Source: an uncultured Anaerolineales bacterium (lineage in GTDB: Bacteria > Chloroflexota > Anaerolineae > B4-G1). Taken from it: a stretch of DNA of 64,000 bases. A model generated the notes under the pieces. That model saw only the letters and a list, made by a program, of their open reading frames with translations, did not search any database and had not been told where the DNA came from. Each line of letters starts with the position of its first letter. The first letter of the stretch is position 1. Of the stretch, positions 7,020 through 50,904 are shown piece after piece. Made by a program: the position numbers and the translations under genes. The stretch lies in assembly GCA_964542755.1 (NCBI GenBank), contig CAZIWL010000005.1:12439-76438 (forward strand). The letters are read 5' to 3'.

Positions 7020-8474
7020 GTGACGGATCAACTGCCGATTCCGACGCTGCAGCCATTTAGTCGCGGCCTCTCTGACGAACAGGTGCGTGAGCTACATTAC
7101 GCCACGCTTGAGATCCTCTCAAGCACGGGAGTCGATATGCAGGACCCCGAGGGCCGTGAACTCCTCTTGGAGGCGGGCGCCTGGGAGTCTGACGACCGCA
7201 TCAAGGTGCCCGAGAACCTGGTGACCGACGCCATCGACGCGGCGCCCTCGCGCATCCCCATGTACGATCGATTGGGTAACCTGACGATGCCGCTGGAGCT
7301 TGGAAAGGTCTTCTTTGGCGCCGGGTCAGACACCACGTTCACGCTCGACGTGGAGACTGGCGAGCGCCGTCGTACCACAGCCCGGGATGTCGAGGACATT
7401 GCGCGCCTCTGTGACGCATTGGACAACATCGACTTCATCATGTCGATGAGCAATCCCTCGGACGTCCCCGCCGACGATCTGTACATCCACGAGTTCGCCG
7501 GAATGATCCGGGGCTCCGCAAAACCGAACGTCTACACGGCGAAGGACCGTGCCGACGTGGAGGATATCTATCGCATCGCTGCCGCCGTGGTCGGTGGCGA
7601 ACAGGCCTTGCGTGAGAGACCATTCTTCTTGCTCTACGCTGAGCCCATTTCGCCCCTGATGATCATCGAGGAATCGCTACAGAAGCTGATCTTCTGCGCC
7701 GAGAAGGGAGTCCCGTCAGGTTACATTCCCTCACCCAACATGGGGGGAGGGGGACCCATCACGCTCGCCGGCGCTCTCGCGGTCGGTAACGCCGAGTGTC
7801 TGCTGGGCCTGGTCATCGCGCAGCTGCTCAACCCCGGCACCCCGTATATCTACGGGATGAACACCGCCGCTATGGATATGAAGACCACCATCATCAGCTA
7901 CGGCAGTCCTGAGTGGCCCCTTGGCATGATGGCTCAGATGGACTTGGCCCGATACTACAATCTCCCGGCGTGGTCGGCTGCCGGAGCGAGCGACAGCAAG
8001 GTCGTTGACGCCCAGGTGGGCATCGAGATCACGTTCTCGGTCCTCGCCAACTTCCTGGCGCGCGCCACACTGGTGCACGACGTGGGCTACATTGAGTATG
8101 GTTCGACGTCCTCGATGGAAGCGCTGGTTATCGCCGACGAGGTCATACGCCAGACCCGCTTCCTTACGCAGGGCGTCGAGGTCAGCCCGCGCACGCTGGC
8201 GTTGGACGCCACAGCACGTGTGCGGCCTGGAGGTGGCTACCTGGCCGACGACCACACGCTGGACAACTGGCGGGAGGCGCAGTGGCACCCTGACCTGATC
8301 GACCGCGCTCGCTACGACGACTGGGTGGAGGCTGGCAGCAGGGATATGTTCACACGCGCCAACGAGCGGGCACGGAGGATCCTGAGCGAGCATGAGGTGG
8401 CGCCGCTGCCGGAGGAGGCCGAGAGCCTCATCGCGGAGATTCTGGAGAAACGAGCGTCCGAGCAGGGCGAGTAG
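7020..8474 (+). CDS. MttB-superfamily methyltransferase, second paralogue (non-Pyl)
   Basis: 484 aa, paralogous to 5414-6877. GTG start with GGAGGTGA RBS. Confidence 0.85.
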   Translation: MTDQLPIPTLQPFSRGLSDEQVRELHYATLEILSSTGVDMQDPEGRELLLEAGAWESDDRIKVPENLVTDAIDAAPSRIPMYDRLGNLTMPLELGKVFFGAGSDTTFTLDVETGERRRTTARDVEDIARLCDALDNIDFIMSMSNPSDVPADDLYIHEFAGMIRGSAKPNVYTAKDRADVEDIYRIAAAVVGGEQALRERPFFLLYAEPISPLMIIEESLQKLIFCAEKGVPSGYIPSPNMGGGGPITLAGALAVGNAECLLGLVIAQLLNPGTPYIYGMNTAAMDMKTTIISYGSPEWPLGMMAQMDLARYYNLPAWSAAGASDSKVVDAQVGIEITFSVLANFLARATLVHDVGYIEYGSTSSMEALVIADEVIRQTRFLTQGVEVSPRTLALDATARVRPGGGYLADDHTLDNWREAQWHPDLIDRARYDDWVEAGSRDMFTRANERARRILSEHEVAPLPEEAESLIAEILEKRASEQGE

Positions 8475-10124: not shown

Positions 10125-10288
10125 GGCTGTGACAACGAGTGGTCGCCCCGCCCGGTGCGATACACCTTCCAGGTGCGTTGCACCTCACGAGCGTATGCTT
10201 GCCTCGTATGCCAGTCAAAACAGGTCAGTACACGGGGGCCAACGGGCTCCAAGCAGCGACCATCTCCGCGACAAGTCGTTAGCGCACC
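10125..10288. repeat. MITE-like interspersed element, copy A (about 165 bp, terminal inverted repeats, internal GGTGC-N3-GCACC palindromes)
   Basis: Shares the core ccggtgcgatRcaccttccaggtgcgttgcacctcacgagcgtatgcttgcc...gcgacaagtcgttagcgcacc with copies at 11211, 25264 and 50703. Confidence 0.8.
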
Positions 10289-10403
10289 CCCCGTGAAAGC
10301 GGCGGCTTGACGAAACGGGGCCTTCGCGTTAGAATACCGCGCGCGGGCAGGATACGCTTCCTGCCCGTTTGTTGAGCAAGACGGTATTCAGGAGGAGTGT
10401 AGT

Positions 10404-11210: not shown

Positions 11211-11290
11211 GGTGCACGAACGAGTGACCGCCCCTCCCGGTGCGATGCTCCTTCCAGGTGCGTTGCACCTCACGAGCGCATGCTTGCCAC
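11211..11290. repeat. MITE-like element, truncated copy B (5-prime half only)
   Basis: ggtgcacgaacgagtgaccgcccctcccggtgcgatgctccttccaggtgcgttgcacctcacgagcgcatgcttgcc. Similarity to the family ends about 11290. Confidence 0.7.
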
Positions 11291-11339
11291 ATCTCGCCGT
11301 AAACTTGAAATGCACCCGCTCCGATCCGAGAGGGATGGC

Positions 11340-11368: not shown

Positions 11369-11395
11369 GACGTGCCAACCGTGAGGGGTGGCAAT

Positions 11396-12385
11396 TTGGA
11401 GTATAGGGACTACTACGACATCCTGAATGTTGGCCGGGGCGCGAGCGAGAAGGAGATCAAGCAGTCCTTTCGCCGCCTGGCCCGCCGCTGGCACCCCGAC
11501 GTGAACCCCGACGACCCCCAAGCCGAAGAGAAGTTCAAAGAGATCAACGAGGCATACGAGGTACTGAGCGATCCAGAGAAGCGCTCCAAGTATGACCGGC
11601 TGGGCCATAGCTGGAAACAGTGGCAGCGGTCAGGTGGCGATCCGGGACAGTACGACTGGTCCCAGTGGTTCACCGGTGGACCGCGAGGAGCCCGCGTCCA
11701 CTGGAATGGCGACCTGGGCGATCTCTTCGGTGGCGCCGGTGGTGAGGCCTTCTCGGATTTCTTCGGCGCCATCTTTGGCGGGGGGACGGCCGGCCGCCGC
11801 CGATCCGCGGCTGACATCTTCGGTCAGCCGGTTCGCGGTCGGGCCTATGGCGCTGGGTCGCGCGGACGGGACGCGGAGACCAATGTCACTGTCACCCTTG
11901 AGGAAGCGTACCGTGGGACGAGCCGTGTCCTGGAGAGAGGCGGACGGCGCATACGGGTCACCATTCCCCCGGGTGTGCGTACCGGTTCCCGAGTGCGAGT
12001 CGCCGGCGAAGGGAACTTCGGCCATACCGGCGGGGATTCTGGTGACCTCTATCTGAGCATTGCCGTGGAACCGCATCCTGTTTTCGAGAGGGAGGGCGAC
12101 GATCTCCGCTGCGATGTGGCGGTGGATCTTTGCACGGCCGTGCTTGGAGGGCGGCTCCGGCTGCCCACGCTGAACGGCGACGTATCGTTGAGGATTCCCG
12201 CCGGGACCCAGGGTGGGCAGACCTTCAGGCTCCGGGGAAAAGGGATGCCCAATCCCCGACGCCCTGACGAGCGAGGGCATCTCTTGGCCACAACAGAGAT
12301 CGAGATTCCGCAGAAGCTGACTCCCCGTGAGAGAGAGTTGTTTGAGGAGTTGGCGAAGAGTAGAGGAAAGGAACGCCATGCATAG
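11396..12385 (+). CDS. DnaJ-class co-chaperone (J domain plus DnaJ C-terminal domains, CbpA-like, no zinc finger)
   Basis: [37 protein letters not shown] domain with the HPD motif. Gly-rich linker, then C-terminal DnaJ_C beta-sandwich. TTG start with GAGGGG RBS; the start codon is uncertain. Confidence 0.75.
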
Positions 12386-13553
12386 AGGGAAGCCGCTGTT
12401 GCTTCTCATAGCGCTTCTGACCCTGGCCGCGTTAGCCTGCAACGCCCAGGAGCTAGTGTTCGAACCCACGCCCACCTTGCCTTCGCAGTTTGCCCCGAGT
12501 CCAGAGCCCACGCCCACACTTCTGCCCGCCTCCGAGGGCGACCTAAAGGAGTTGGATGCTCAAGACGCACTCCTGGCGAGCCTCTATCAGCGGGTCAATC
12601 CTGCTGTCGTCTATATCGAGGTCCTTATGCAGCGCGGCGGTGGACTCCAGCCCGTGAGCAGCGGGTCTGGCTTCATGATAGACAAGGACGGCTATGTGAT
12701 CACGAACAACCACGTCGTCGAGGGCGCCAACGCCCTGCAGGTCGTGCTGGCCGATGGCTCCGTCGTGAACGAGGTCGAGATCGTGGGGCGTGATCCCTAC
12801 TCGGACATCGCTGTCATTCGCATGGAGGCCCCGCCGGACCGCTTGACGCCTCTGGAGCTCGGAGACTCCGATGCACTGCGCGTCGGACAGAGGGTGATTG
12901 CTATCGGGAACCCCTTTGGTCTCCAGGGAACTATGACCTCCGGCGTGGTGAGCGCCGTGGGGCGGACCCTGACGTCTCAAGCACTGGAGGGCGGCTCGTT
13001 CTCCAATCCGGAGATTATCCAGACCGACGCATCAATCAACCCGGGGAACTCCGGCGGCCCGCTTCTGGACTCGCGTGGGCGCGTTGTGGGCGTCAACACG
13101 GCGATCCGTTCCGGGACGGGTGTCAACGCCGGGGTGGGCTTCGCCGTGCCCGTGAACACAGTCAAGCGCATTGTTCCGCAGCTCATCGAAAATGGGGCCT
13201 ACGACTACCCGTACCTGGGGATCACGTCCGATACGAGGTTCACTTTGGCCGAGTTGGCTGACCCGTTGGAGCTCCCCGTCGACTACGGGACGCTCGTCTC
13301 TGAGGTCCAGCCTGGCACGGCAGCGGCGGAGGCAGGTCTCCGGGGTGGTGATCGCGAAGTAGAGGTTATGGGCCTCCCGGTCGTGGCTGGCGGTGACATC
13401 ATCACCGCCATCGACGGCGAGCAGCTCCGGACGTTCGACGATCTCGTGGCGTATCTCGTGAGCGACACGGAGGTGGGACAGCAGGTGACACTGACTGTCT
13501 ACCGTGACGAAGAGCAGCTGGAGGTTCCAGTCATCCTTGGGCAGAGGCCGTAG
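12378..13553 (+). CDS. HtrA/DegP-family serine protease with PDZ domain (secreted or lipoprotein)
   Basis: Signal peptide with LAALAC. Trypsin-like catalytic motifs (HVV, DIAV, GNSGGPL) and a C-terminal PDZ domain. Confidence 0.85.
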
Positions 13554-16002: not shown

Positions 16003-18207
16003 CTAGTCGACGTCCTTCGCACAGCGAAAACCGGCCACGGTGAAGCCGAACTTCGGATCAAGTTGGAAACGATACGCGCTGCGGACGAACTGCTCAGTGT
16101 CGTACCACGAACCTCCCCGGAGTACCTTCTGCGCGCCTGAGGCCGGGCCCGTCGGATTCACGTCCGCTTCCTCACGGTAGTCCCCGTACCAGTCCTCCAC
16201 CCATTCCCAGACATTGCCTGCCATATCCAGCGCCCCGCACCAGCTTGCGCCTCCCGGATAGCCCCCTACGGGCCCTGTCTTCGCATACCCGTCGTCGCTG
16301 TCCTCGGCAGCCCACTCGGAGGGGCATCGTGCATCGCAGAAGTTGAGCCGCTGCCCGTCAAAGGTGTCACCCCATGGGAAGACCCGCGCCTCGGGACCCC
16401 GGGCGGCATACTCCCACTCGGCCTCGGTTGGCAACCGTCCTCCTATCCATTCGCAGTAGGCCGCCGCACCGTGCCAGGTAACCTCTAGTACGGGGTGGTC
16501 TGCGTAACCGGCCTTGGCCCGGAAACTATCCCCGGCCTGTTCAATCAACGCGCTCTCGCTCTCCACCTCCAGCCAGTCCGTACCGTCCTCTGCCTGGTTC
16601 GTCTCCTGATCGAGGAAGGTTGCGAACTGCTCGTTTGTCACCTCGGTCCTGTCAATCCAGAAGCTGTCTAGGGTCACACGATGGATTGGCCCTTCCTTTT
16701 CGAACACCTCTCTCTGGCACTCGTCATTCAGTTCCAGGCAGAACGCTAGCGCGTGCTCGATATCCTCTCTACTTGTGCCCATGTCGAACGCGCCGGCTGG
16801 CACGAGGATCATCATGGCCCCATCCGTCGGTCGGATCTGTGTCTCGACTTCCGGCGTAGCCTCAGTCCCTGCGGGTTCAGGGGTATCCGCTCTGTTCTCG
16901 TCAGGCAGAGGGCTGGGGTCCACGGTCCTCGTCGGCGTCCCGGTGGCGCTCGGCTCACGAGTCGCCGAATCGCCTTCCGTCGCCTCCGCTGTGGATACTC
17001 GTCCCAGCTCTCCCACAGCGTCACCCGAACGCCCCGTCTGACCGGCCAGGACCAGGCCCAGGGCTACTGCGGCAGTGAGGACCGCCAAAGCCAGGCCTCC
17101 AAGGGCCCAGGCGATTAGAGGTATTCCTCCTGGCGTACTGCGTCGCTGTTGGGAGCCCGAGCCAGGCGGAGCTCCATCAGTCGCGCCGCGTCCGGACTGC
17201 TGCGATACCCGGCGCAGGTCCAGATCTGCCTCATCCACCCCCCTCCTGTCTCCCTCGGCGGCGGGCCCGATTCCCCTACGTGGCGTTTCCCTGGAAGAGG
17301 CTCGTTCACGCGCTGATCCCCCGTCATCCCTCGCTCTGATTGTCTTGCGCCCTTGCCGGCCCGATTGCCTACGCTGCAGGGCATCCCGCATGGCTTCAGC
17401 GCTCGGAAAGCGACCCTTTGGATCCTTATGCAACGCGCGATGCACGACCGCAGCCAGGTGTTCCGGAACGTCCGTCCTCACGTCTGTCAGGGATCTCGGT
17501 TGTGATTGCTGGATCAGCCCGATGTTGTGTGCCTGGGCTGCCGGTGTGGTCTCGGTTCGGAATGCAAGATAGGGCTTGCCGGCCAGCATCGTGTAGAGGA
17601 GCACCCCCACGGCGTAGACATCGATGCGCGGGTCGTCCCGGACGCCCGAGAGTTGCTCCGGGGCCATGTACTGGACCGTCCCCATGGCCAACCCGGCCGC
17701 GGTGTGGAACCTCCGGGTCATCATGTCTGTGGAAACGTACGCGATGCCGAAGTCAACCAACTGCACCTGACCATCCTCATCGAAAAGGACGTTGGCTGGC
17801 TTGATGTCGCAGTGCACAACACCCTTTTGGTGGGCGTAATGCAGGGCCTCGCATAGATCGGCTGCAATGCGGACGACTTGATGGGGCGGGAGCGGCCCAT
17901 CCTCCAGCCGCTCTTCAAGCGATCCGCCGGGCAAGTGCTCCATCGCCAGGTAGTAGGTTCCCTGGTCCTGGAAGATGCCGTACGTCCGAGCGATGTACCT
18001 GTGCTTGAGGCGGAGGGTCGCGCGTGCTTCCTGGATGAATCGGTGCACCATCTCCGGATCATCGACGAAGCTGGGTATCAGCTCCTTGATGGCGACAACT
18101 TCACCAGTCAGCCGTTCGCGCGCGAGATAAACGTAGCCGAAACCGCCTCGGCCTACAATGCCAGAAATCTGGTACTTTCCGTCCAGGATCTTTCCTGGCT
18201 GTCGCAT
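16003..18207 (-). CDS. Ser/Thr protein kinase fused to a C-terminal formylglycine-generating-enzyme (FGE-sulfatase) domain, with TM segment
   Basis: N-terminal Hanks kinase (GRGGFGYVY, HCDIKPAN, DFG, APE). Low-complexity linker and TM helix. C-terminal FGE motifs (RVTLDSFWID.TEVTN, LPTEAEWEYAARG, RGGSW). AGGAGG RBS before the ATG at 18207. Confidence 0.85.
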   Translation of the reverse strand: MRQPGKILDGKYQISGIVGRGGFGYVYLARERLTGEVVAIKELIPSFVDDPEMVHRFIQEARATLRLKHRYIARTYGIFQDQGTYYLAMEHLPGGSLEERLEDGPLPPHQVVRIAADLCEALHYAHQKGVVHCDIKPANVLFDEDGQVQLVDFGIAYVSTDMMTRRFHTAAGLAMGTVQYMAPEQLSGVRDDPRIDVYAVGVLLYTMLAGKPYLAFRTETTPAAQAHNIGLIQQSQPRSLTDVRTDVPEHLAAVVHRALHKDPKGRFPSAEAMRDALQRRQSGRQGRKTIRARDDGGSARERASSRETPRRGIGPAAEGDRRGVDEADLDLRRVSQQSGRGATDGAPPGSGSQQRRSTPGGIPLIAWALGGLALAVLTAAVALGLVLAGQTGRSGDAVGELGRVSTAEATEGDSATREPSATGTPTRTVDPSPLPDENRADTPEPAGTEATPEVETQIRPTDGAMMILVPAGAFDMGTSREDIEHALAFCLELNDECQREVFEKEGPIHRVTLDSFWIDRTEVTNEQFATFLDQETNQAEDGTDWLEVESESALIEQAGDSFRAKAGYADHPVLEVTWHGAAAYCEWIGGRLPTEAEWEYAARGPEARVFPWGDTFDGQRLNFCDARCPSEWAAEDSDDGYAKTGPVGGYPGGASWCGALDMAGNVWEWVEDWYGDYREEADVNPTGPASGAQKVLRGGSWYDTEQFVRSAYRFQLDPKFGFTVAGFRCAKDVD

Positions 18208-18618
18208 AGGGATCCTCCTGTTTCGACCCCGGTCGCTCAAGGTCCTGGGGTGAGCGGCTAGTATAGCATCTCCTGACGGCGCTAACAACCCACCACTTGC
18301 GCTCAACCACGGCGCGCGGGGGAGGCTCTCTCATATGCAAATCCAACACGATTCCTACGAAACTCCTACGAGGAATCCGTATAATCTTGACGAGGCGCAA
18401 GATGCGTCGATCCTGTGGCAGCGCACTATGGTGCAGGAAGAGCGTGGGCGTTTCGAATTGCCGTGGTCTCTCCATGTGAGGTGATCCAATGGAGCATCAT
18501 GCACGACGGGGGCGCTTTCTGGCAATCCCGTGCGAGGGGTGGACGCTCTCTGATCATTGGGTTTGAGCCATGTTAGGCCTATTTGGATAGTTGTCTTTAG
18601 AATCGATTGGTGAGTGAT

Positions 18619-21210
18619 ATGAATCTAAACAAGTTCACGCAGAAAGCACAAGAAGCTGTGATGGAGGCACAGTCGCTGGCGGGCAAGTACAGCCACAGCC
18701 AGATCGAACCCGGGCATCTCCTGCTGGCGCTTCTGCGGCAGGCGGACGGCATCGTCCCACAGGTCGTCCAGAAGCTCGAGGCGAATCCGGGGGAGATGGC
18801 CCTGTCCCTTGAGGGCGAACTGAAGAAGCGGCCGAGGATTCGTGGCGCGGCAGCCCAGGTGGGCATGTCGCGGCAGCTCGGACGTGTACTGGAAGAGGCC
18901 CAGGAGACGGCTCAACGCATGCGCGACGAGTACGCGAGCACGGAGCACCTGCTGCTGGCTCTGACCGGCACCCAGGGGGGTGATGCTGCGCGTTTCCTCT
19001 CAGCTCATGGCGTCACGGAGGACGCTGTTCTCAGGGCACTGACCGCCATCCGGGGCAACCAGCGTGTCACCAGTCAGAATCCCGAGGCGACGTACCAGGC
19101 CCTGGAGAAGTACGGTCGCGATCTAACGGAGCTGGCCCGTGATGGCAAGCTGGATCCTGTCATTGGGCGCGACGAGGAGATTCGCCGCGTGATGCGCATC
19201 CTGAACCGCCGTACCAAGAACAATCCCGTCTTGGTTGGCGAGGCAGGTGTGGGCAAGACAGCGATCGCCGAGGGCCTGGCCCAGCGCATCGCCCACGGCG
19301 ATGTTCCCGAGGGGCTGAAGAACAAGCGCATTGTCGAGCTCGATATGGGGGCTTTGGTCGCTGGCGCTAAGTTCCGAGGTGAGTTCGAGGAACGGCTCAA
19401 GGCGGTGCTCAAAGAGGTTACCGAAGCGGCCGGTCAGGTCATCCTGTTCATCGACGAGCTCCACACCGTTGTAGGGGCTGGCGCGGCGGAGGGTGCCGTC
19501 GACGCGGGCAACATGCTCAAGCCGAAGCTCGCACGCGGTGAGTTGCACGCCATTGGTGCGACGACCTTGAACGAGTACCGGAAGTACATTGAGAAGGATG
19601 CGGCCCTTGAGCGACGCTTCCAGCCCGTCTTTATTGCCGAGCCGGGGGTCGAGGATACCGTCAGCATACTCCGCGGGCTCAAGGAGCGGTATGAGGTCCA
19701 CCACGGCGTGCGCATCAAGGACTCGGCCTGCATCTCGGCGGCCACGCTTAGTGATCGGTACATCGCAGACCGTCAGCTCCCAGACAAGGCCATCGACCTC
19801 ATCGACGAGGCTGCCTCACGCCTGCGCATGGAGATTGACTCCAAGCCGTCCGAGCTAGATGAAGTGGATCGACAGATCATGCAGTTGGAGATTGAGCGCG
19901 AGGCCCTCAAGAAGGAGAGCGACACGGCCAGCCGTGACCGGCTCGAGGACCTGGAGAGAGAGCTGGCTGACCTGGAGGAGACGCGGAAGGCCCTGCGCGC
20001 GCAGTGGGAGCAGGAGAAGAGTGCCATCCAAGCGGTCCAGCAGACGAAGGAGCAGATGGATCGAGTCCGTCATCGTATCCAGGAGGCCCAACGGACGCAC
20101 GACTACGAACAGGCATCGGAACTCCAGTACGGTCGACTTTCGGAGCTGCAGCGGCAGCTTGAGGCTCAAGAGGAGCGGCTCAACGAGCTCCAAGAAGGTG
20201 GTGCTATGCTCAAGGAGGAGGTCGGCTCAGAGGAGATCGCCGAGGTCGTCTCTGAATGGACAAGCATCCCCGTCGCCAAGCTCCTTGAGGGAGAGCGAGA
20301 GCGTTTGCTCCGCATGGAGGAGGCTCTCCACCGCCAGGTTGTGGGACAGGAGGAGGCCGTCGAGGCCGTCTCAAACGCCGTGCGACGGGCCCGCGCCGGT
20401 CTGCAGGATCCCAACCGGCCCATCGGGACCTTCATCTTCCTCGGTCCAACGGGAGTCGGCAAGACCGAGCTGGCCAGGGCTCTGGCCCAATTTCTCTTCG
20501 ACACGGAAGAGGCCATGATTCGCATCGACATGAGCGAGTACCAGGAGCGGCATACTGTCTCCCGCTTGATCGGTGCCCCTCCCGGGTACGTAGGCTATGA
20601 GGAGGCCGGTCAGCTCACTGAGGCCGTTCGACGCCGTCCCTACAGCGTGGTCCTTTTTGACGAGATCGAGAAGGCCCACCCGGAGGTCTTCAACACCCTC
20701 CTCCAGCTGTTGGACGAGGGCCGTCTGACCGATGGGCAGGGGCGGACGGTGGACTTCCGGAACACGATCATCATCATGACGAGCAACGTCGGCAGCCGCT
20801 GGATCAAGGACAAGGGTGTCGATGAGGCGCGAGACAAGGTGATGGAGGAGCTCGATCGCATCTTCCGTCCCGAGTTCCTCAACCGCATCGACGAGATCAT
20901 TCTCTTCCGCAGCCTCACCAAGGAGGACTTGCGAAGGATCGTCGACATCCAGATGCGCCATCTGCGTCGTCTGCTCGACGAGCGGAAGATGGACTTGCAG
21001 ATGACGGATGAAGCACGGCGTCATCTGGCCGAGGTCGGCTACGATCCGGTCTACGGTGCCCGTCCACTCAAGCGCGTCATCCAGCGGCAGGTGCAGGATC
21101 CGCTGGCCCTGTCGCTCCTCCGGGGAGAGTTCGACGAGGGCGACACCGTACGGCTGGAGGCACCTAACGGGCGCATTACGTTCAAGAAGGCCGAGGCTGC
21201 TTCGGCTTGA
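18619..21210 (+). CDS. clpB: Chaperone ClpB (Hsp100 disaggregase)
   Basis: Two AAA+ modules with Walker A/B. Long coiled-coil middle domain (about 130 aa). Clp N domain. Confidence 0.9.
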
Positions 21211-21221
21211 TGCTTTCGGTA

Positions 21222-21254
21222 GGCAGGGCCGCCCACACGCCGCCACAAGGGCGG
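21222..21254 (+). terminator. GC-rich hairpin downstream of clpB (no T-tract)
   Basis: GGGCCGCCC-14 nt-GGGCGGCCC perfect 9-bp inverted repeat. Confidence 0.3.
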
Positions 21255-21404
21255 CCCCGCAGCTCAGTGCGAGTCTGGTCGGGCCGGCTATGATGGGGGA
21301 TACGGCGTCCCTATGCTCACCCGTTCTTCAGCCGGATGCATGGTGAGACATCGAGCACGCTCCAACCACATCCCGTCTTCTGGGGGCAACTCGCTGCCCA
21401 ATAC

Positions 21405-21434
21405 GTTGTCTCGAGACAACTTGTTAGGTATAAT
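21405..21434 (+). promoter_or_regulatory. clpC promoter (TTGTCT-17-TATAAT) overlapped by a perfect 16-bp palindrome GTTGTCTCGAGACAAC (candidate operator)
   Basis: acGTTGTCTCGAGACAACttgttaggTATAATcac. The palindrome spans 21405-21420 and includes the -35 hexamer. Confidence 0.45.
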
Positions 21435-21515
21435 CACAATCAGTAGTCCTCTGGCGCGTGTCCCTACAGAGCCAGAGGGCACCGGTCCCGTAGGGCTAGA
21501 GGAGTCAACTGGTCG

Positions 21516-24017
21516 ATGATGAGGTTAGACCGTTTCACTGAGCGGGCGCAGGCGGCGGCCCAGCGGGCCGTCCAGATCATGGGGCGCTATGGACACACGC
21601 AGGTGGACACGGAACATATCTTCCTGGCGCTCCTGGAGCAACCTCAAGGCGCCATCTCCGACCTGATGGAACAGCTCGGCGCCGATACCGAGCAGGTCGA
21701 GAAGAAGCTCGACGAGGCACTGCAGGACAGTGCCAAGGCCAACGTCTACGGCGGCGGGGGCATGGGGCAGGTATTCATCACCCCGCGCGTGAAGCGCGTG
21801 TTGGACCGCGCGAACGCCGAGGCGAATCGGCTCAATGATGACTATATCTCCACCGAGCACATCTTCTTGGCCATCGCGAGCGAGAGGGACACGCTGCCCG
21901 CCCGCATCCTTCGAGAGCAGGGCATCTCCAAGCAACGGATCTACGAGGCCATCAAGGAGCTGCGGGGTGGCAAGCGAGTCACCGATCGACGAGCTGAGAC
22001 CCACTATCGGGTTCTGGAGAAATACAGCCGAAACCTGACCCAGATGGCGCACGAGGGGAAGCTTGACCCCGTTATCGCCAGGGATGATGAGATCCTCCGT
22101 TTGATCCAGATCCTCTGCCGCCGCACTAAGAACAACCCGGTCCTTATCGGTGAACCCGGAGTGGGCAAGACTGCCATCGCCGAGGGTCTGGCCCAGAAGG
22201 TCGCCGAAGGGGATGTCCCCGAGATTCTGATGGGGCGGGAGGTTGCCCAGTTGGATCTAGCATCAATGGTGGCCGGGACTCACTTCCGCGGCGAGTTCGA
22301 GGAGCGGCTGAAAGCGACCATCGAGGAGATCCAGAGTTCTGAAGGAGATATCATCCTCTTCATCGATGAGCTTCACAACGTGGTGGGGGCTGGGGCCGGC
22401 ATGGGGGCGCTCGATGCCTCAAACATGATGAAACCAGCGCTGGCTCGCGGTGAACTCCAGTGTATCGGGGCGACCACGCTCGATGAATATCGTCAATACA
22501 TTGAGCAGGATGGTGCCCTGGAGCGGCGATTTGCCCCCATCTTCGTCGATGAGCCAACAGTCGAGAAGGCTGTGGTCATGCTCGAGGGGCTGCGGGACCG
22601 ATATGAGGCACACCACAAGGTTCACATATCGGATCAAGCGATTCAGGCGGCTGCTCACCTCTCGCACCGCTACGTCACGGACCGCCGCCTTCCTGATAAG
22701 GCTATCGACCTGATGGACGAGGCCGCGGCCAAACTGCGCGTTGCCCTCCACACCCTCCCTCCGGAGTTGAAGGAGATGCACATTGAGCTCCAGCGCCTCC
22801 AGACGGAGATCGACGCGGCCAGCAATATGGAGGATTACCAGCGGGCGGCCGAGTTGAAGACCGAGCGCATCAACCTTCAGGCTGAGTTCAACCTGCAGCG
22901 CGAGATATGGCAGCAGGAGAATCAGCTGGACGAGACCATTGAGGAGAAGGACATCGCGGAGGTCATAGCCAAGTGGACCGGCATTCCTGTGGCGCGCATG
23001 CTGGAGACGGAGTCGGACAAGCTGCTCCGGATGGAGGATGCGATCCACGAGCGCATTATCGGACAGGAGGAGGGCGTCGCCGCGGTCTCCGATGCCATCC
23101 GGCGCGCCCGGTCCGGGTTGAAGGATCCCAGCCGTCCTATCGGCAGCTTCATCTTCCTCGGCTCGTCGGGTGTGGGGAAGACAGAGCTGGCCAAGGCGCT
23201 GGCATGGTTCCTCTTCGACGACGAGGATGCCCTGGTTCGCATCGACATGAGTGAGTATCGGGAGCGGCACACTGTCTCGCGCCTCTTTGGTGCGCCTCCG
23301 GGATACATCGGTCACGAGCGCGGCGGCCAGTTGACCGAGGCGGTTCGCCGCCGACCTTATCGGGTTGTCCTCTTTGATGAGATCGAGAAGGCCCACCCGG
23401 ACGTGTGGAACGCGCTTCTTCAGATTCTGGACGAGGGGCGGCTCACTGATGGTCAGGGTCGCATCGTGAACTTCCGGAATACCGTCGTGATCATGACGTC
23501 CAACGTCGGGACCTCGTTTGCTCATGAGGGTGGCACGCTAGGCTTCATGCGCTCCGAGGAGGACGGGCAAGGTGGCACGGTGAATCAGGAGCGCATCAAG
23601 CGCGAGCTCAAGGACACCTTCCGACCGGAGTTCCTCAACCGCATCGACGAGGTCATCGTCTTCAACAACCTGACGGTGGAGGACATGGAGAGCATCGTCG
23701 ACCTTCAGATGGCTGAGGTATCGGATCGACTCTCCGACGTGGGTCTGCAGGTCCGGCTGACTGACTTGAGCCGACGGTGGCTGGCGCGGAAGGGTTTCGA
23801 TCCTCAGTTTGGAGCCCGACCTCTTCGCCGTGCTCTCCAGCGGCACGTGGAGAGCCCTCTCAGCGTCAAGCTCCTACGGGGGGACTTCGAGCGCGGAGAC
23901 ATCGTGGTCGTCGACGTGGCGGACGATGATCTCATCTTCCAGACCAGCACTGAGTGGACGGAGCTGAGCGAGAAGACCAGGGAGCCCGTCGCCGGAGAGG
24001 TGAGCGTCGAGTCGTAG
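21516..24017 (+). CDS. clpC: ClpC/ClpA-type AAA+ ATPase (Hsp100 with short linker)
   Basis: 833 aa. Two N-domain repeats, two AAA+ modules, a short UVR-like linker ([25 protein letters not shown]) instead of the long ClpB M-domain. Confidence 0.85.
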
Positions 24018-24086
24018 ACGTCGAGCCCCCATCTCGGTGACGGGGCGAGCGGATGCATCAGCGCGACGTGTCAGTGTGACGTGTCA

Positions 24087-24114
24087 GAAGGGCCTGGAGA
24101 CATCCAGGCCCTTC
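24087..24114. terminator. Bidirectional rho-independent terminator between clpC (+) and degV (-)
   Basis: gaagggcctgga-gaca-tccaggcccttc perfect 12-bp stem followed by tcagttcttc. Confidence 0.6.
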
Positions 24115-24206
24115 TCAGTTCTTCACAGTTCTGCTGGCTCTTGTCCGAGCCGGTCGTGGCCGAGATTCCCACCGGCCCCGCGCAGTTCGGTTGGCGGCTG
24201 CTCTGT

Positions 24207-25061
24207 CTAGGAGACGGGGAAGAAACTCACCCCCACTGTGCCCGGGCCGGAGTGGACCGCCAAGGCTGGTGATAGTTCGCTCACCAGGATCTCGGCGCAC
24301 TCAAAATGAGTGGTCACCATCGCTTGCAGCTGGTCCAGCCGCTCCCGCGCCGCCACGTGTGTGAAGGCTACCTTGATGCGGGCCCCTTCGCCCACCCGCT
24401 GCTGCATCAGATCGACGATCCGCCGGTACGCCTTGAGCCGGCTGCGGGCTGTCCCGAGCGCCACGATCTCCCCATCCGCCATGCTGATAATGGGCTTGAT
24501 ATTCAGCAGAGAACCGAGGAGGTGTTGGGCCTTCCCAATCCGTCCGCCCATGTAGAGATAGCGCAGGGTGTCTGCTGTCTGGATCATCAGACCTTTTCGA
24601 GCCGTCTCCCGGGCCCTTTCGAGCACGTCCTCAAATCCCTTCCCGGTCATCGCGGCGCGAGCTGCCTCGACAGCGACCCAGCCCTGGGACATCGCCACCT
24701 GGAGCGTGTCGACAACCTCCACCCGGACATCGGGTGTTCGTTCACGGAACATCTCCACGGCTGCACGACAGGATTGATAAGCGCCGCTGCCGTGAGAGGT
24801 CATCGTCAGCGCGAGGACACCTTGCACCCGACTCGCTAGATTCCTGAGCCCCCGGAAATAGTCACCTGGAGCCGGGTTGGAGGTGGTCGGCAGCTTGCTG
24901 GCTCGTGCCAGCCAGTCGGCGAACTCCGCCGGCTTGACGTCGACCATGTCCTTGAGGGTCTCCAGCCCACGGTGGACGTAGTAGGGAACCACCTCGATTT
25001 GCAGCCTCTCGATCAGCCTTCGAGGGATGCTGGCCGTTGTATCCGTGAGAATGCCGATCAA
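24207..25061 (-). CDS. DegV-family fatty-acid-binding protein
   Basis: IGILTDTTASIP N-terminus and DegV fold throughout. TTG start at 25061 with GGAGGG RBS. The longer ORF (to 25304) runs into the MITE copy, so it is not the real start. Confidence 0.8.
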   Translation of the reverse strand: MIGILTDTTASIPRRLIERLQIEVVPYYVHRGLETLKDMVDVKPAEFADWLARASKLPTTSNPAPGDYFRGLRNLASRVQGVLALTMTSHGSGAYQSCRAAVEMFRERTPDVRVEVVDTLQVAMSQGWVAVEAARAAMTGKGFEDVLERARETARKGLMIQTADTLRYLYMGGRIGKAQHLLGSLLNIKPIISMADGEIVALGTARSRLKAYRRIVDLMQQRVGEGARIKVAFTHVAARERLDQLQAMVTTHFECAEILVSELSPALAVHSGPGTVGVSFFPVS

Positions 25062-25263: not shown

Positions 25264-25427
25264 GGTGCACTAACGACTTGTCGCCCACACCCGGTGCGAT
25301 GCACCTTCTAGGTGCGTTGCACCTCACGAGAGTATGCTTGCCACGTATGCCAGTCACGACTGATCAGTGCACGGGCGCCAACGGTTTCCAATCGGCGACC
25401 AGCTCCGCGACAAGTTGTTAGTGCACC
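25264..25427. repeat. MITE-like element, full copy C, with 21-bp terminal inverted repeats
   Basis: Left end ggtgcactaacgacttgtcgc. Right end gcgacaagttgttagtgcacc. Internal ggtgcgatgcacc and ggtgcgttgcacc palindromes. Confidence 0.8.
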
Positions 25428-25455
25428 CCCTGCCGCGCTCTGAGGGTGAAATTGT

Positions 25456-30694: not shown

Positions 30695-32668
30695 ATGACA
30701 CCCACCGACCCGCTTGAGACACATAAGATCGAGGATATCCGGTCATCCTCCGTTGGAGCCGATGCGCGGGAGCCCACTGCGCTCGGCTCAAGTGAGGGCT
30801 CGAAGGTCGAGCGCCCCGTGGAGCAACCCTCCCGTATCGACGGGCGTCTACCACCGGGATTCCTCCTCCAGGATCGCTACCGCATCCTGTCGGTGCTGGC
30901 GATAGGAGGTATGAGCGCCGTCTACAAAGGGCAGGATCTCCGCTTCTCCAAAGTCAAGCGGGTCTGTGCCATCAAGGAGATGACCAGCAGCGCCACGGAC
31001 CCCGATGTCCGCCAGATGATTCTGCGCAACTTCGAGCGAGAGACGAACATCCTGGCCACCCTCAATCATCCCGGCATCGTTCAGGTCTACGACTGCTTCA
31101 CCGAGGGCGATCGAAGCTACCTGGTCCTCGAGTACGTGCCAGGGAAGGACCTGGAGGCGATGCTCGAGCAGACGCGAGGCTTCCTCTCCGAAGAGAAGGT
31201 GGTGAGCTGGGCCATTCAGATCTGTGAGGTGCTCAGCTACCTCCACAGCCAGGAGCCCCGCCCCATCGTCTTCCGGGATATCAAGCCCTCCAATGTGATG
31301 CTCGATGACTTTGGACGCGTCAAGCTCATCGACTTTGGCATCGCCAAGATGTTCCAGAGCGGCAAGAGGGGGACAATGATTGGCACGGAGGGATACTCAC
31401 CTCCGGAGCAGTACCGGGGGATGGCCGATCCGAGGGTCGACATCTATGCCTTGGGGGCGACGATTCATCACTTGGTGAGCAAACGGGACCCCCGTTTGGA
31501 GCCGCCCTTTTCTTTCCACCAGCGACCGATCCATGAGACCAATCCAAGTGTCTCTCGAGAGCTGCTGGAGGTAGTGCACCGGGCGCTTGAGTATGAAGCT
31601 AATGATCGCTACGGGTCTGCCGACGAAATGAAGCGGGCATTGACGAGTCTCCGTTCCGCTCGGGGCGGAATGGGCACGGATGCCTTCGGTGCTCCGGCTG
31701 TCGTCAGGGGCGAGATCACGCCCCAGTGGCGCTTCGCCCTTGAGGACGAGATCCGCTCCTCGCCAGCTGTCCATGGCGGCACGGTCTACGTTGGGGCGTA
31801 CGACCACAACCTCTATGCCCTAACAGCCGACACGGGCGAGTTCCTGTGGAAATATGCCACCGATGGCGGCATCGCTTCCTCACCTTGCGTCTATGAGGGC
31901 ATGGTCTTCGTCGGCTCCACGGATAAGGTGCTCTACGCCGTGGACGCCAGCGATGGGCGTATCCGCTGGACTTGCCCCACTGGGGGCAGGGTCTGGTCGT
32001 CCCCCCAGGCTGCCTTCCATCACGTTTTCTTCGGTTCCGATGACCGACACCTCTACGCGGTCAATGTGGAGTCGGGGCGCGTAGCCTGGCGGTTCGAAGC
32101 CGACGGGCAGGTGCGCTCGTCGCCTCATCTGGGCGACGAGGCGATCTATGTCGGCTGTGAGGCAGGTGTCGTCTACGCAGTGGATACCGGTGGCGAGATT
32201 CGCTGGCGCTTTCGGGCTCGCCGGGCCGTGACCTCCTCGCCTGCTGTGACTGACGAGATGGTCTACATAGGGGCGCAGGACCGATATGTGTACGGTCTTG
32301 ACGTCCGATCTGGATGGCTGGCCTGGCGCTACCGGACGGATGGCCCGGTGATCTCCTCACCGGCTGTGGGGAAGGGCATTGTCTTCGTGGGATCAGCGGA
32401 CAGCCATCTGTACGGGCTGGACGCCGAGACCGGTCGTCTGGTCTGGCGGTATGGCACCGACGGGCAGGTGACATCCTCACCGGCGTTGTCTGGAGGGCGG
32501 GTCTACTTTGGTTCCGTGGACGGTGGCGTCTATTGTGTCGAGGCCGAGACAGGCAATCTACTATGGCGGTACCAGACCGACGGCCCGGTGACCTCTTCCC
32601 CCGCTGCTACCGAGGAGAGGGTATACGTGGGATCCTGTGACCGGTACTTGTACGCACTGCCTGGATGA
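30695..32668 (+). CDS. Ser/Thr protein kinase with C-terminal PQQ-repeat beta-propeller
   Basis: Hanks kinase motifs (VYKG, AIKE, FRDIKPSN, DFG, SPPE). C-terminal repeated (V)Y(V/F)G(S)xD..LYA(L/V)D...G...WR(F/Y) PQQ-like blades, about 7 copies. Confidence 0.85.
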   Translation: MTPTDPLETHKIEDIRSSSVGADAREPTALGSSEGSKVERPVEQPSRIDGRLPPGFLLQDRYRILSVLAIGGMSAVYKGQDLRFSKVKRVCAIKEMTSSATDPDVRQMILRNFERETNILATLNHPGIVQVYDCFTEGDRSYLVLEYVPGKDLEAMLEQTRGFLSEEKVVSWAIQICEVLSYLHSQEPRPIVFRDIKPSNVMLDDFGRVKLIDFGIAKMFQSGKRGTMIGTEGYSPPEQYRGMADPRVDIYALGATIHHLVSKRDPRLEPPFSFHQRPIHETNPSVSRELLEVVHRALEYEANDRYGSADEMKRALTSLRSARGGMGTDAFGAPAVVRGEITPQWRFALEDEIRSSPAVHGGTVYVGAYDHNLYALTADTGEFLWKYATDGGIASSPCVYEGMVFVGSTDKVLYAVDASDGRIRWTCPTGGRVWSSPQAAFHHVFFGSDDRHLYAVNVESGRVAWRFEADGQVRSSPHLGDEAIYVGCEAGVVYAVDTGGEIRWRFRARRAVTSSPAVTDEMVYIGAQDRYVYGLDVRSGWLAWRYRTDGPVISSPAVGKGIVFVGSADSHLYGLDAETGRLVWRYGTDGQVTSSPALSGGRVYFGSVDGGVYCVEAETGNLLWRYQTDGPVTSSPAATEERVYVGSCDRYLYALPG

Positions 32669-32690
32669 GGAGGGACCCGAGAGAGGGGGC

Positions 32691-33551
32691 ATGCATTTTC
32701 TACGCAGACTGATTGGCCGTGAGAACCCCTCGGCACCGACCGAGATTCAGGATGGGTCGGGGTCGAGCAGCGAGCGCCCGCGGATGGATGTCGGATGGGT
32801 CACCGACGCGGGCAAGGTGCGCGACCACAACGAGGACGCTGCTCTTGTCATCACGGCAGCCCACGATGCGCGCCAGGCCCATCCTCCATTCGGCCTCCTA
32901 GTGCTTGCGGATGGTATGGGCGGACACCGGGCCGGGGAGGTCGCGAGCTCCCTGGCGGCTCGGGTTGCGGCTCACCATATCACGCGTCGCTCCTATTTGC
33001 CCTCCCTCCTCGGGCCCGAGCAAGATGCCCGGCGTCCGGCTCTGACGGAGGTCCTCATTGATGCCGTGCAAGCGGCTAACCAGACTGTGTCTGAGGAGGT
33101 GCCCGGCAGCGGCACCACGTTGACCTGTGCTCTCGTCTTGGAGACGCAGGCGTATGTTGCCCACGTAGGGGATAGCCGTGCCTACGTCATCACCGAGGAC
33201 GGGATGAAACAGATCACCCACGACCATTCGATCGTCGATCGACTCGTGGACACGGGGCAGTTGACGCCCGAAGAGGCGGCTGAGCACCCTCAGAAGAACG
33301 TCCTCTATCGGGCCATCGGGCAAGGCGGAGCGCTGGACGTGGATACCCACGTGCACAAGGTTGGAGCAGGTGACTATCTACTGTTGTGCAGTGACGGGCT
33401 GTGGGGGCTGGTCAGCGAGACAACCATGGTCGATCTAATCCGGGAAGCCCCATCTCTTCAAGAGGCGTGCCGCCAACTTGTTACCGCCGCGAACGACGCT
33501 GGAGGGAGCGACAACATCACGGCTATCCTCTGGCGCTCTCCGCTCGGTTAG
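32691..33551 (+). CDS. PP2C-family Ser/Thr protein phosphatase
   Basis: DAGKVRDHNED, LADGMGGH, AHVGDSRAY, CSDGL, GGSDNIT metal-binding motifs. Confidence 0.85.
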   Translation: MHFLRRLIGRENPSAPTEIQDGSGSSSERPRMDVGWVTDAGKVRDHNEDAALVITAAHDARQAHPPFGLLVLADGMGGHRAGEVASSLAARVAAHHITRRSYLPSLLGPEQDARRPALTEVLIDAVQAANQTVSEEVPGSGTTLTCALVLETQAYVAHVGDSRAYVITEDGMKQITHDHSIVDRLVDTGQLTPEEAAEHPQKNVLYRAIGQGGALDVDTHVHKVGAGDYLLLCSDGLWGLVSETTMVDLIREAPSLQEACRQLVTAANDAGGSDNITAILWRSPLG

Positions 33552-33566
33552 GACGTTGCCCATCTG

Positions 33567-35069
33567 ATGCCCACCGGGGTCCCTATGGACATTAATGTCA
33601 CCAAGGACTATTACAGCATCTTGGGTGTATCCCCTTTCTCCACCCAGGAGGAGATCAAACAGGCCTATCGGCAGCTGGCTCTCCGCTACCATCCTGACAG
33701 CCGTGAGGCCGACACGTCCACACGTCTCTTTCATCAAGTACACGAGGCCTACGCCGTGCTGGCCAATCCTGAGACCCGTCGCTCATACGACCGGCAGCGG
33801 GATGAGAAGCGGGCAGATGAGACCGCTCCCCTGATCCTTGATGTCGTGCAGAGCCAGGAGACTCTCAGCTCGAGGCATGACGAGCAGATACTCTACGCCC
33901 TGCTGGAGGTCCGTCCCGGAACCGTCTCCAGCCGTGAGCGCCTACCTCTTGACCTATCGATGGTGATCGACAAGAGCACCTCGATGAAGGGGGCTCGCCT
34001 TGCCAGCGTGAAGGCTGCAGCCCGGGAGATTCTCGATCAGCTCAATGATGACGACTTCCTGGCTATCGTTAGCTTCAACGACCGGGCTGACCTTCTGATA
34101 TCCGACCAGGTTGGGGTGAGCCGTGCCCGCGCCAAGAGAGCCATCAACGGCCTGCGCGCGGAGGGGGGAACGGAACTGCTAAGAGGACTCCGTATTGGTC
34201 TCGATGCTCTAAGCAGCTACCGGGGACACGATGTGGTGCGCCACCTGTTTCTTCTCACGGATGGGCGGACATACGGGGATGACGACGCATGTGTCGCGGC
34301 GGCAGCCGAAGCCGCCGACAAGGATATCGGCATCACCGCTATGGGCATCGGAGAGGACTGGAACGACGATCTCCTGGAGGAGATGGCGGCCCTCAGTGGT
34401 GGTACGTCGGCCTACGTGTCGTCGCCCGGGCAAGTGCGTGCCCTGTTGCACGGGATGATCCGCAAGCTCAGTTCGGTTTTCGCCACGGAGATGATCCTCA
34501 GTGTGCGGACGGCCCCGGGGGTATCAGTAGAGAGCATCTTCCAGACTTCACCCTCCCTGGAGCGTCTCCAGCTCTCCGAGGGTGTGACTCGGTTGGGACC
34601 GCTGGAGGTTGAGACGCCCAGGAGGATCCTCATCGAGATTGCCGTCGAGGCCAGGCCGCCGGGCGACCATCGTCTCCTCCAAGCCGACCTGTTCGGCGAT
34701 GTGCCGAAGCTAGAGAAGCGGAGCGAGAGGCTCCGGCGCGCCATCTGGTGTCGATTCACCGACGAGGGGATTGACCAGGAGGAGCAGCAGGTCCCTGAAG
34801 TCATCCTCAGATTGGTGAGCCGGATCACACTCTATCGTATGCAGGAGCAGGCATGGTCGGCTCTTGAGGAAGGCAACGTCGATCAGGCGACTCGTCGGTT
34901 GGAGGTGGTAGCGACCCGCCTCCTTGACATGGGTGAGGAGCGCTTGGCGCAAGCTGCTCTGCTTGAGGCCAAGCATATCGCCGAAAGGGGAGGCGCCACG
35001 GAACGAGGTCGCAAGGAGATCAAGTACGGCACCCGCCGTCTCAGTCTCAGGAGCGAGGCCTATGATTGA
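33567..35069 (+). CDS. J-domain / von Willebrand factor A (vWA) fusion protein
   Basis: N-terminal J domain (DYYSILGVSPFSTQEEIKQAYRQLALRYHPD). Central vWA with MIDAS (DKSTSM..S). C-terminal helical region. Confidence 0.75.
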   Translation: MPTGVPMDINVTKDYYSILGVSPFSTQEEIKQAYRQLALRYHPDSREADTSTRLFHQVHEAYAVLANPETRRSYDRQRDEKRADETAPLILDVVQSQETLSSRHDEQILYALLEVRPGTVSSRERLPLDLSMVIDKSTSMKGARLASVKAAAREILDQLNDDDFLAIVSFNDRADLLISDQVGVSRARAKRAINGLRAEGGTELLRGLRIGLDALSSYRGHDVVRHLFLLTDGRTYGDDDACVAAAAEAADKDIGITAMGIGEDWNDDLLEEMAALSGGTSAYVSSPGQVRALLHGMIRKLSSVFATEMILSVRTAPGVSVESIFQTSPSLERLQLSEGVTRLGPLEVETPRRILIEIAVEARPPGDHRLLQADLFGDVPKLEKRSERLRRAIWCRFTDEGIDQEEQQVPEVILRLVSRITLYRMQEQAWSALEEGNVDQATRRLEVVATRLLDMGEERLAQAALLEAKHIAERGGATERGRKEIKYGTRRLSLRSEAYD

Positions 35070-35577
35070 GTGTCCATCCTGCGGAAGGAAGCACCGCCCG
35101 GGAAGCCTTTTCTGCAGTGAATGCGGTGGGTATCTGCCGACCGCGGGGCGGCCCGGAACAGAACCAATCCCGGGGCGCGAGTTGCCCAACAGGCAGGCTC
35201 GAGCCTGGGGGCCCAGCACGAAGAGCGCCGGAGAGTCGGGGAGGACCGGCACGAAGCTGCAGATCAGGGTGGTCTCCAACGAGCGCGAGATTCAGTTGCC
35301 TCCGGGGGCGGATGTGCATGTGGGCAGGCTGGACGCCGCTCAGGACATCTTCCCCGACGTCGATCTAACCCCGGACGGTGGTTTGAAGGGCGGCGTATCG
35401 CGATGCCACTGCCGTATCTATGGGGAGGACGGCGACTACTACGTCGAGGACCTGGGAAGCGCGAACGGGACCTTTCTTAACGGGGAGCGGCTGACCCCCT
35501 ACCTACCTCACGTGCTCGGGGAGGGCGACCGGCTCCAGCTCGGCCGTGTGGAACTGGTGGTCACGGTCCTGGAGTAG
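35062..35577 (+). CDS. FHA-domain protein with N-terminal zinc ribbon
   Basis: CPSCGRKH...CSECG ribbon. FHA core (GR..DV.L....VSR.H......DG.YYVEDLGSANGTFLNG). ATGA overlap with the upstream stop. Confidence 0.8.
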   Translation: MIECPSCGRKHRPGSLFCSECGGYLPTAGRPGTEPIPGRELPNRQARAWGPSTKSAGESGRTGTKLQIRVVSNEREIQLPPGADVHVGRLDAAQDIFPDVDLTPDGGLKGGVSRCHCRIYGEDGDYYVEDLGSANGTFLNGERLTPYLPHVLGEGDRLQLGRVELVVTVLE

Positions 35578-35602
35578 GACCTCGTGGACTGGGAGGGAGA
35601 CC

Positions 35603-35845
35603 ATGGCCTACACCGTATTGGTACATATCTTGAACGAGGAATCCGTCGTGGGGGAGATCGAGCGCGTTCCGGAGCCTACGGACCAGGTCCTCATCATCCA
35701 CAACGTCCGTTATCGCGATGGCCGGGATGTCTCCTACGTCCTGCCGGAGACTGACACGGTCATCTACCCTTGGCAGCGTATTCACTGTGTCGAGATTCTG
35801 CCTAGCGGGGACGAGGAAGAGGTGGTCAGCTTCATCAGGGAGTGA
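35603..35845 (+). CDS. Small conserved-looking hypothetical protein (80 aa)
   Basis: Compact ORF between the FHA and response-regulator genes. No recognisable motif. Confidence 0.35.
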
Positions 35846-35862
35846 GCGGAGGGAGGGCGTCC

Positions 35863-38688: not shown

Positions 38689-38729
38689 TTGACCATTGAA
38701 AATCATACGTGTTACTCGGAGGTGACAGC

Positions 38730-50586: not shown

Positions 50587-50702
50587 ACGGACGGGAGCGC
50601 TGGCGACTGTTAGATCCAGTCGGGCGCGGAGCGTTCCTATCCTGCCATCAGCACCCTGTTATCCTTCCCGGTGAGAAGGGCTTCGGTGCGGCGTCGAGCG
50701 TG

Positions 50703-50842: not shown

Positions 50843-50904
50843 CCGTCGAGCGTGATAGGCTTGCGCACCCGCCTCCTCTATGATACAACATCGACGGGAG
50901 AGCC

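Follow-up and report, generated by a model that had tools for sequence, protein, structure and literature searches.

A perfect palindrome on the clpC promoter of an uncultured Anaerolineales bacterium is probably a young feature of one species on a conserved promoter

The window analyzed here is the whole 64-kb stretch of DNA (64,000 nucleotides, 62% GC) from an uncultured Anaerolineales bacterium. It carries a clpC gene whose 833-aa product has its best full-length matches among solved structures in the ClpC proteins of S. aureus, B. subtilis and M. tuberculosis. The best relatives of the window ClpC are found in Anaerolineae and Anaerolineales MAGs, and a protein look-up with either start codon found no exact record of the protein. 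The gene upstream (ATG at 18619, extending to 21210) scores above the ClpB equivalog cut-off TIGR03346, and the neighbors of clpC also include degV and genes for a zinc-ribbon protein and for proteins without a Pfam match. Besides clpC, the window has eight proteostasis genes, among them clpB, two hsp20 genes, two dnaJ-domain genes and htrA (see Table 1).

The 16-bp sequence GTTGTCTCGAGACAAC, read directly, is a perfect palindrome, as the original prediction had claimed. That prediction had also placed it on the -35 element of a TTGTCT-17-TATAAT promoter located about 80 nt upstream of clpC, and this description holds as well: the left arm contains the -35 box, and the -10 box ends 81 nt before the clpC ATG at 21516. 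In a consensus scan of positions 18000-24500, the promoter was the best sigma-70-like site (10/12 matches), and clpC transcription would presumably start at about 21441-21442. The palindrome is not an assembly artefact, because an independent metagenome assembly from the same organism (L081, 99.8% identity over 10.5 kb) contains it in identical form. Outside the perfect core, 5 of the 8 flanking positions also match (binomial p ~0.03). Dyad symmetry that overlaps the core promoter, the generic mark of an operator for a dimeric protein, is present here.

Table 1. Features of the clpB-clpC region and the other stress genes of the window
Feature	Coordinates	Strand	Basis and remarks
dnaJ	11372-12385		
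HtrA-like protease	12327-13553		
Heptad array, clpB	18342-18370		-10 box TATAAT at 18380-18385
GC-rich hairpin after clpB stop (GGGCCGCCC..GGGCGGCCC), without T-tract	21226-21258	+	sequence
Extended imperfect dyad CCCAATACGTTGTCTC / GAGACAACTTGTTAGG	21397-21428	.	16-nt arms, 13/16 complementary
Perfect 16-bp palindrome GTTGTCTCGAGACAAC	21405-21420	.	left arm contains the -35 box; right arm is spacer nt 1-9
-35 box TTGTCT of clpC promoter	21406-21411	+	consensus scan; TTGTC in 29-31 of 31 distinct orthologous promoters
Spacer block TTGTTAGG adjoining -10 box	21421-21428	+	clpC-specific; promoter comparison
-10 box TATAAT	21429-21434	+	consensus scan; invariant in alignments A1 and A4
5'-UTR hairpin P1, CCTCTGGC (21448-21455) x GCCAGAGG (21471-21478)	21448-21478	+	covariation
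Possible pseudoknot helix P2, CCCTAC (21462-21467, P1 loop) x GTAGGG (21490-21495)	21462-21495	+	87.9% paired
Shine-Dalgarno AGAGGAG of clpC	21498-21504	+	nearly invariant in alignment A3; AGAGGGG in 1 of 11
ClpC-type Hsp100 gene, 833 aa	21516-24017	+	ORF; structure-database matches
DnaJ-VWA protein gene	33567-35069		
Heptad array, hsp20	38111-38150		-10 box CATCAT at 38160-38165
hsp20 pair	38239-38688 and 38709-39173		

Several other features of the window lie outside the clpB-clpC region. An intergenic repeat of about 85-146 nt, with the hairpin AGGTGCgttGCACCT, is present in copies that are 69-87% identical (10134-10291, 11219-11303, 25273-25430 and 50701-50846); these lie upstream of an L25 gene, dnaJ, degV and a response-regulator gene, and the repeat may be a REP- or MITE-like element. 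A signalling cluster at 30695-36603, located 1.6 kb upstream of the hsp20 pair, encodes a Ser/Thr kinase with a PQQ beta-propeller, a PP2C phosphatase, the DnaJ-VWA protein, a zinc-ribbon protein that looks FHA-like by eye, a small ORF and an OmpR-family response regulator (35842-36603), and it is partly syntenic in the related loci L161-L166. The Rfam family PYLIS_3 (pyrrolysine insertion element of mttB) matches 6392-6491 on the + strand with 49 bits, above the gathering score. This match lies inside an MttB-family ORF (5414-6877) that has no in-frame stop codon; the gene is probably a non-pyrrolysine MttB paralogue whose coding sequence resembles the element. Another MttB gene follows at 7020-8474, adjoining genes for a pterin-binding protein and a B12/radical-SAM protein.

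Orthologous clpC loci for comparison were taken from GTDB species genomes and JGI metagenomes, and closer relatives (95, 92, 92 and 91% ClpC identity) were added by a protein search. In at least 31 distinct clpC loci of Anaerolineae, the arrangement TTGTCy-17-TATAAT lies equally far from the start codon, and the consensus over 31 distinct promoters is ctTTGTCy-gatagggCAATGTGCGG-TATAAT with a 17-nt spacer. Among the twelve closest sequences (alignment A4), TTG, TATAAT and the spacer positions G22, T29 and T31 are invariant; the -35 box reads TTGATT in L162, L163 and L164. Two hexamers 16-18 nt apart that are conserved in orthologues are the mark of a sigma-70-type promoter, and the clpC promoter has both properties. 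The alignments show that TTGTCT-17-TATAAT is a real clpC promoter in this comparative sense, and the housekeeping sigma factor presumably transcribes clpC from this near-consensus site.

The right arm of the palindrome takes up spacer positions 1-9, which are variable, and the dyad is absent from eleven close relatives other than L161 and about 150 further loci (see Table 2 for the nearest ones). In the closest relative, L161, GTTGTCTCGAGAAGGC replaces the GTTGTCTCGAGACAAC of the window, a difference of three bases in the 8-nt right arm. L162 and L163 have GTTGATTGACGGCGTG and ATTGATTGTGGACGGG, L164 is similar, and none of these forms a dyad. L165 has TTTGTCTGGTGGTAGG, and the right arm is likewise absent in L133, L082, L083 and L001-L003 (all in alignment A4). 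Over the whole range of relatives with 92-86% ClpC identity, no dyad was found.

Table 2. Sequence at the palindrome position of the clpC promoter in the window and its relatives
Locus	ClpC identity	Palindrome position
window		CGAGACAAC
L161	95%	CGAGAAGGC
L162	92%	GACGGCGTG
L163	92%	GTGGACGGG
L165	91%	GGTGGTAGG
L133	90%	CAAGGGGCG
L001	88%	GATGTGGCG

Between the window and L161, the 33-nt promoter core is 88% identical, compared with 54% for fourfold-degenerate clpC sites. Three of the differences fall inside the palindrome, where they are adjacent (CAA in the window versus AGG) and make up the outer right arm; the core also has a fourth difference, T versus C, within the spacer block TTGTnAGG. 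L161 retains only an 8-bp palindrome, TCTCGAGA. The columns that contain the CAA of the window have G-rich bases in most other relatives, arguing that CAA is the derived state. With the dyad missing from the relatives and its right arm in a variable stretch of spacer, the palindrome is a feature derived in one species. Judged from these alignments, the 16-mer is a recent gain in that species and not a site kept by selection across species.

In the explanation that we favor, this young feature is a neutral by-product, carried by a conserved promoter, rather than an operator for a DNA-binding protein; this is probably, though by no means certainly, correct. According to this explanation, the ancestral -35 box TTGTCT and 9 nt of freely drifting spacer together would have given rise to the palindrome. 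It could plausibly have originated in one template switch ("quasipalindrome correction") extending the older 8-bp core; this origin is suggested by the clustering of the three differences, as would be produced by one multi-base event. Two properties of the site run counter to a by-product. The perfect dyad is centred on the -35/spacer junction, which is the geometry of many repressor operators, and the dyad continues past its perfect core with 13 of 16 positions complementary in the 16-nt arms. These same properties, together with the strength of the promoter, are what one would expect if the palindrome were a newly evolved, species-specific operator, in which a dimeric helix-turn-helix repressor would bind two GTTGTCTC half-sites, occlude the -35 box and repress clpC until stress. 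The symmetry available to such a repressor is perfect over 16 bp and imperfect to 32 bp. The TTGT..ACAA dyad presumably also recalls the operators of GntR-type regulators, by shape alone.

How often such palindromes arise by chance bears directly on the choice between these explanations. The window contains two perfect palindromes of 16 nt, the second one at 43036, along with seven of 14 nt and 24 of 12 nt, and first-order Markov simulations of the window gave means of 1.69, 6.0 and 21.3, respectively, with at least one perfect 16-nt palindrome in 83% of the simulated windows. By itself, then, the palindrome is within chance expectation, and a base rate of about 1.7 per window counts against reading it as an operator. 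Only its position on a promoter is unusual, and that position was noticed post hoc. As a rough estimate, a palindrome would fall on any promoter in a few per cent of windows, which corresponds to a couple of promoters per genome. With the left arm fixed, the probability of an exactly abutting complementary 8-mer at one promoter is 1.5e-5, and so the chance argument rests on the look-elsewhere effect.

The original prediction had proposed a genome-wide search for similar palindromes upstream of chaperone and protease genes, and had named a single occurrence in the genome as a result that would speak against it. Within the sequence covered here, the 64 kb of the window and the related loci, such a single occurrence is what was seen. 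No second site with up to 3 mismatches exists in the 64-kb window, and the sole site with 4 mismatches is within a coding region. Among 160 related loci (1.59 Mb), the palindrome was found only in L081, which is the same organism, and no further copy lies upstream of any gene in the 1.6 Mb of related loci. The two matches with 3 mismatches in the 1.59 Mb are both away from promoters, and chance would imply about 6. Likewise, L161-L166 contain no match with up to 3 mismatches except at the homologous site. It had also been pointed out that GTTGTCT occurs upstream of clpB. The sequence is indeed there, although at 18590 rather than 18576 and as a heptamer rather than a "hexamer"; GTTGTCT/AGACAAC occurs 8 times in the window, where about 7.8 are expected for a 7-mer, and so the repeat near clpB is meaningless.

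The species-specific operator is weakened further by the genes around clpC. No transcription-factor gene adjoins clpC in the window; the closest regulator genes encode an OmpR-type protein, at a distance of 12 kb, and an ArsR-type protein, at 19 kb. In the literature searched, the only matches to a 14-mer of the palindrome are shRNA hairpin oligonucleotides. The heat-shock operator that had been predicted here is therefore not upheld, given a right arm that is unconserved even at 95% ClpC identity, the lack of a second copy in the window and the related loci and the lack of an adjacent regulator gene. We regard an operator that arose in this species alone as unlikely, while recognizing that it accounts directly for the geometry of the site.

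One further argument for such an operator comes from a different element, found upstream of other stress genes. Tandem TCYAAYR heptads, in 3-4 copies with 4-nt gaps (an 11-bp period), are located upstream of clpB and hsp20; each array finishes 9 nt short of a -10 box, at a promoter whose -35 hexamer is poor. Scanning of 1.57 Mb for three in-phase heptads, independently of any training set, returned 88 sites (72 distinct), versus 0-3 in Markov simulations. The great majority of the distinct arrays (61 of 72) immediately precede a clp gene: 37 precede clpB, and 24 precede clpC orthologues of more distant Anaerolineae lineages. The remaining arrays include that of the window's hsp20 and arrays at clpB or clpC genes with long leaders; further examples are at L111 165, L048 5716 and L106 1148. 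A 12-mer, ATGCAAATCYAA, that initially appeared to be a separate element shared by clpB and hsp20 turned out to be part of the heptad arrays in different registers. Some clpC orthologues (L019 5808-5920, L017 4550-4720 / L108 3601) have tandem promoters, a distal one with a heptad array and a proximal one of the form TTGTCC..TGTGCGG-TATAAT. The heptad array is apparently a previously undescribed cis-element that Anaerolineae use at Hsp100 and sHsp genes, and the tandem heptads would carry the control common to the neighboring stress genes clpB and hsp20. Response-regulator genes are not consistently co-located with the arrays, as judged by tblastn of 160 loci with one informative query.

The clpC promoter of the window lacks the kind of array (at least three heptads, 11-bp period, last heptad 9 nt from the -10 box) that precedes clpC in other Anaerolineae lineages, and with the array missing some other control could have been recruited. 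A more specific proposal is that the palindrome is a recent operator for a dimeric repressor that replaced the lost heptad control of clpC in this lineage. This proposal seems to us quite improbable. If true, it would mean that a regulator swap has been caught in the act within an undescribed heat-shock regulatory network of the Chloroflexota.

The part of the promoter spacer that adjoins the -10 box is conserved in a clpC-specific manner. As this spacer block, close relatives have TTGTCAGG or TTGTCGGG, and the wider clade has (C)AATGTGCGG; read together with the -10 box, it is TTGTnAGG-TATAAT in the window's clade and CAATGTGCGG-TATAAT in the wider clade. The sequence TGTGnGGTATAAT was found upstream of clpC only in the 1.59 Mb searched, and the housekeeping promoters of the window (TTGACR-N17-TAGAAT) do not have the block. 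Conservation of the spacer far exceeds what sigma-70 contacts need, which raises the alternative that a clpC control site shared by the whole clade was remodelled into the palindrome. A factor would read the TTGTC of the -35 box and the spacer block (CAATGTGCGG or TTGTnAGG), and the window would have gained an inverted third TTGTC-like element. The restriction of the block to clpC upstream regions is consistent with this idea, as is the presence of TTGTC(C)-N4-6-(G)GACAA in the distant promoters L007, L012 and L087. The dyad spacing, however, is off by at least 2 bp (N2 in the window versus N4-6 in those three promoters), and their GACAA is one transition from the consensus GGCAA and so arises easily. 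In addition, the nearest relatives lack any dyad and no known factor is available for the role, and a remodelled clade-wide site of this kind is hard to credit. For the palindrome itself, the neutral by-product remains the preferred reading, and gene-specific control of clpC, if there is any, would lie in the conserved spacer block and the structured 5' UTR.

The structure in the 5' UTR consists primarily of the hairpin P1. Of the P1 cells in 11 sequences, 96.6% are paired, and compensatory changes are seen at three pairs, as where two U-A pairs of the window are both C-G in L162. The covariation score of P1 was reached by 1 of 500 shuffles. A second helix, P2, is present in all 11 sequences, with register shifts in some, and its 3' strand is directly 5' of the Shine-Dalgarno sequence. 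A P2 pseudoknot adjoining the Shine-Dalgarno sequence is suggestive only. We also considered an RNA-thermometer-like switch, in which the 5' arm of P1 (CCUCU) would pair with the Shine-Dalgarno sequence, but this pairing has no covariation support, and the anti-Shine-Dalgarno helix is broken in L162 and L163, where compensatory changes keep P1. The clpB-clpC region, including the 5'-UTR structure, has no match to an Rfam family at gathering thresholds.

The palindrome might also act in RNA, since transcripts reading through from clpB would include it. In this case, the extended palindrome would fold into a hairpin that terminates, pauses or stabilizes the 3' end of clpB mRNA. The predicted RNA fold of 21395-21445 is -13 kcal/mol (z = -3.2), and the organization of the region in relatives adds some plausibility. 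In most relatives, a clpB terminator hairpin (ggtgccgg..ccggcacc) with its T-tract runs into the clpC -35 box (gTTTcTTTGTCT); L082, L083, L001-L003, L133 and L165 have this abutting arrangement, and the hairpin that follows clpB in the window lacks a T-tract. Between the clpB hairpin and the palindrome of the window are 145 nt (21260-21404) with no homologue in any locus compared. The palindrome hairpin nevertheless makes a poor terminator, because its stem is AU-rich and is followed by UAUAAUCACAAUC rather than a U-tract, so that it has neither the GC-rich stem nor the U-tract of an intrinsic terminator, and a terminator scan did not call it. L161, L162 and L163 also have displaced terminators, yet they have no such hairpin. 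A function of the palindrome as an RNA hairpin thus appears extremely doubtful. A cruciform or other structural role in DNA was dropped because the predicted single-stranded DNA fold is weak (only -3.9 kcal/mol, z = -0.5). As a separate observation on clpB, an apparent truncated clpB remnant is fused before the clpC promoter in L011 (6001-6180) and L096, and because of it the clpC match reported there begins too far upstream.

As originally proposed, the palindrome would have led towards a new repressor of heat-shock genes, and this in an uncultured phylum; our literature search found nothing on the regulation of heat-shock genes in Chloroflexota. The palindrome is not that handle, being confined to one species, unique in the sequence searched and within chance expectation. 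What stands of the original prediction is the promoter assignment and the distinction of the palindrome from CIRCE and from the CtsR site, while the operator reading does not. Better starting points for understanding proteostasis control in Anaerolineae are the architecture of the clpC promoter, the covarying 5'-UTR hairpin and, above all, the TCYAAYR heptads.

Consensus searches agree that the palindrome fits neither CIRCE nor the CtsR box, and they extend this result to HAIR and ClgR-like sites. No match to CIRCE (TTAGCACTC-N9-GAGTGCTAA) with up to 3 mismatches occurs in the window. The CtsR box RGTCAAA-NAN-RGTCAAA has two 3-mismatch matches in the window (1.56 expected), one in an intergenic repeat upstream of the L25 gene and one in an hsp20 coding region, and none is near the clpC, clpB or hsp20 promoters. 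Three matches to HAIR (CTTGAGT-N7-ACTCAAG) with 2-3 mismatches were found, versus 1.8 expected, none of them at a stress-gene promoter. The operator of the actinobacterial regulator ClgR, WNNWCGCYNANRGCGWW, is located upstream of clpC/clpP; this consensus has nine 1-mismatch matches in the window, none near the clpC, clpB or hsp20 promoters.

In Firmicutes, CtsR boxes at the clpC, clpP and clpE promoters are tandem heptads that overlap the core promoter. The palindrome resembles them in being an element on the core promoter of clpC, with the role that had been predicted for it, but it is a dyad and the CtsR site is a direct repeat. The gene upstream of clpC in the window is clpB, unlike the ctsR-mcsA-mcsB arrangement of CtsR systems. 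The HrcA/CIRCE and HspR/HAIR systems use inverted repeats with arms 9 or 7 nt apart; these repeats show conservation between phyla and are found repeatedly in the same genome. The palindrome is likewise an inverted repeat at the promoter of a chaperone/protease gene; however, its arms abut, and it is a unique site, limited to one species.

There is also a likeness to quasipalindrome mutations. Genetic work in E. coli and phage T4 has established that an imperfect inverted repeat can be made perfect by a template switch in one replication event. Similarly, adjacent changes at the clpC promoter turn an 8-bp palindrome (10 bp with CAA) into a perfect one of 16 bp. Unlike the E. coli and T4 cases, this one is a comparison of two species only, in which the direction of change is taken from outgroup states.

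The heptad arrays have a counterpart in the sites of SARP and OmpR/PhoB-type activators, which are heptameric direct repeats in 11-bp units that overlap the -35 region (PMC10972967). The Anaerolineae arrays similarly consist of three or four heptads with 4-nt spacers near a promoter with a poor -35 hexamer. They are found at Hsp100 and sHsp genes of Chloroflexota rather than at antibiotic or phosphate genes, and the likeness is one of architecture only.

Finally, the clpC promoter itself is comparable to an ordinary sigma-70/sigma-A promoter in its 17-nt spacer, its 10/12 consensus matches and its constant distance to the start codon. It differs from the housekeeping promoters of the window (those of the L25 gene and dnaJ, with TTGAC) in having TTGTC as its -35 sequence, and from ordinary sigma-70 promoters in having a spacer that is conserved gene-specifically next to the -10 box.
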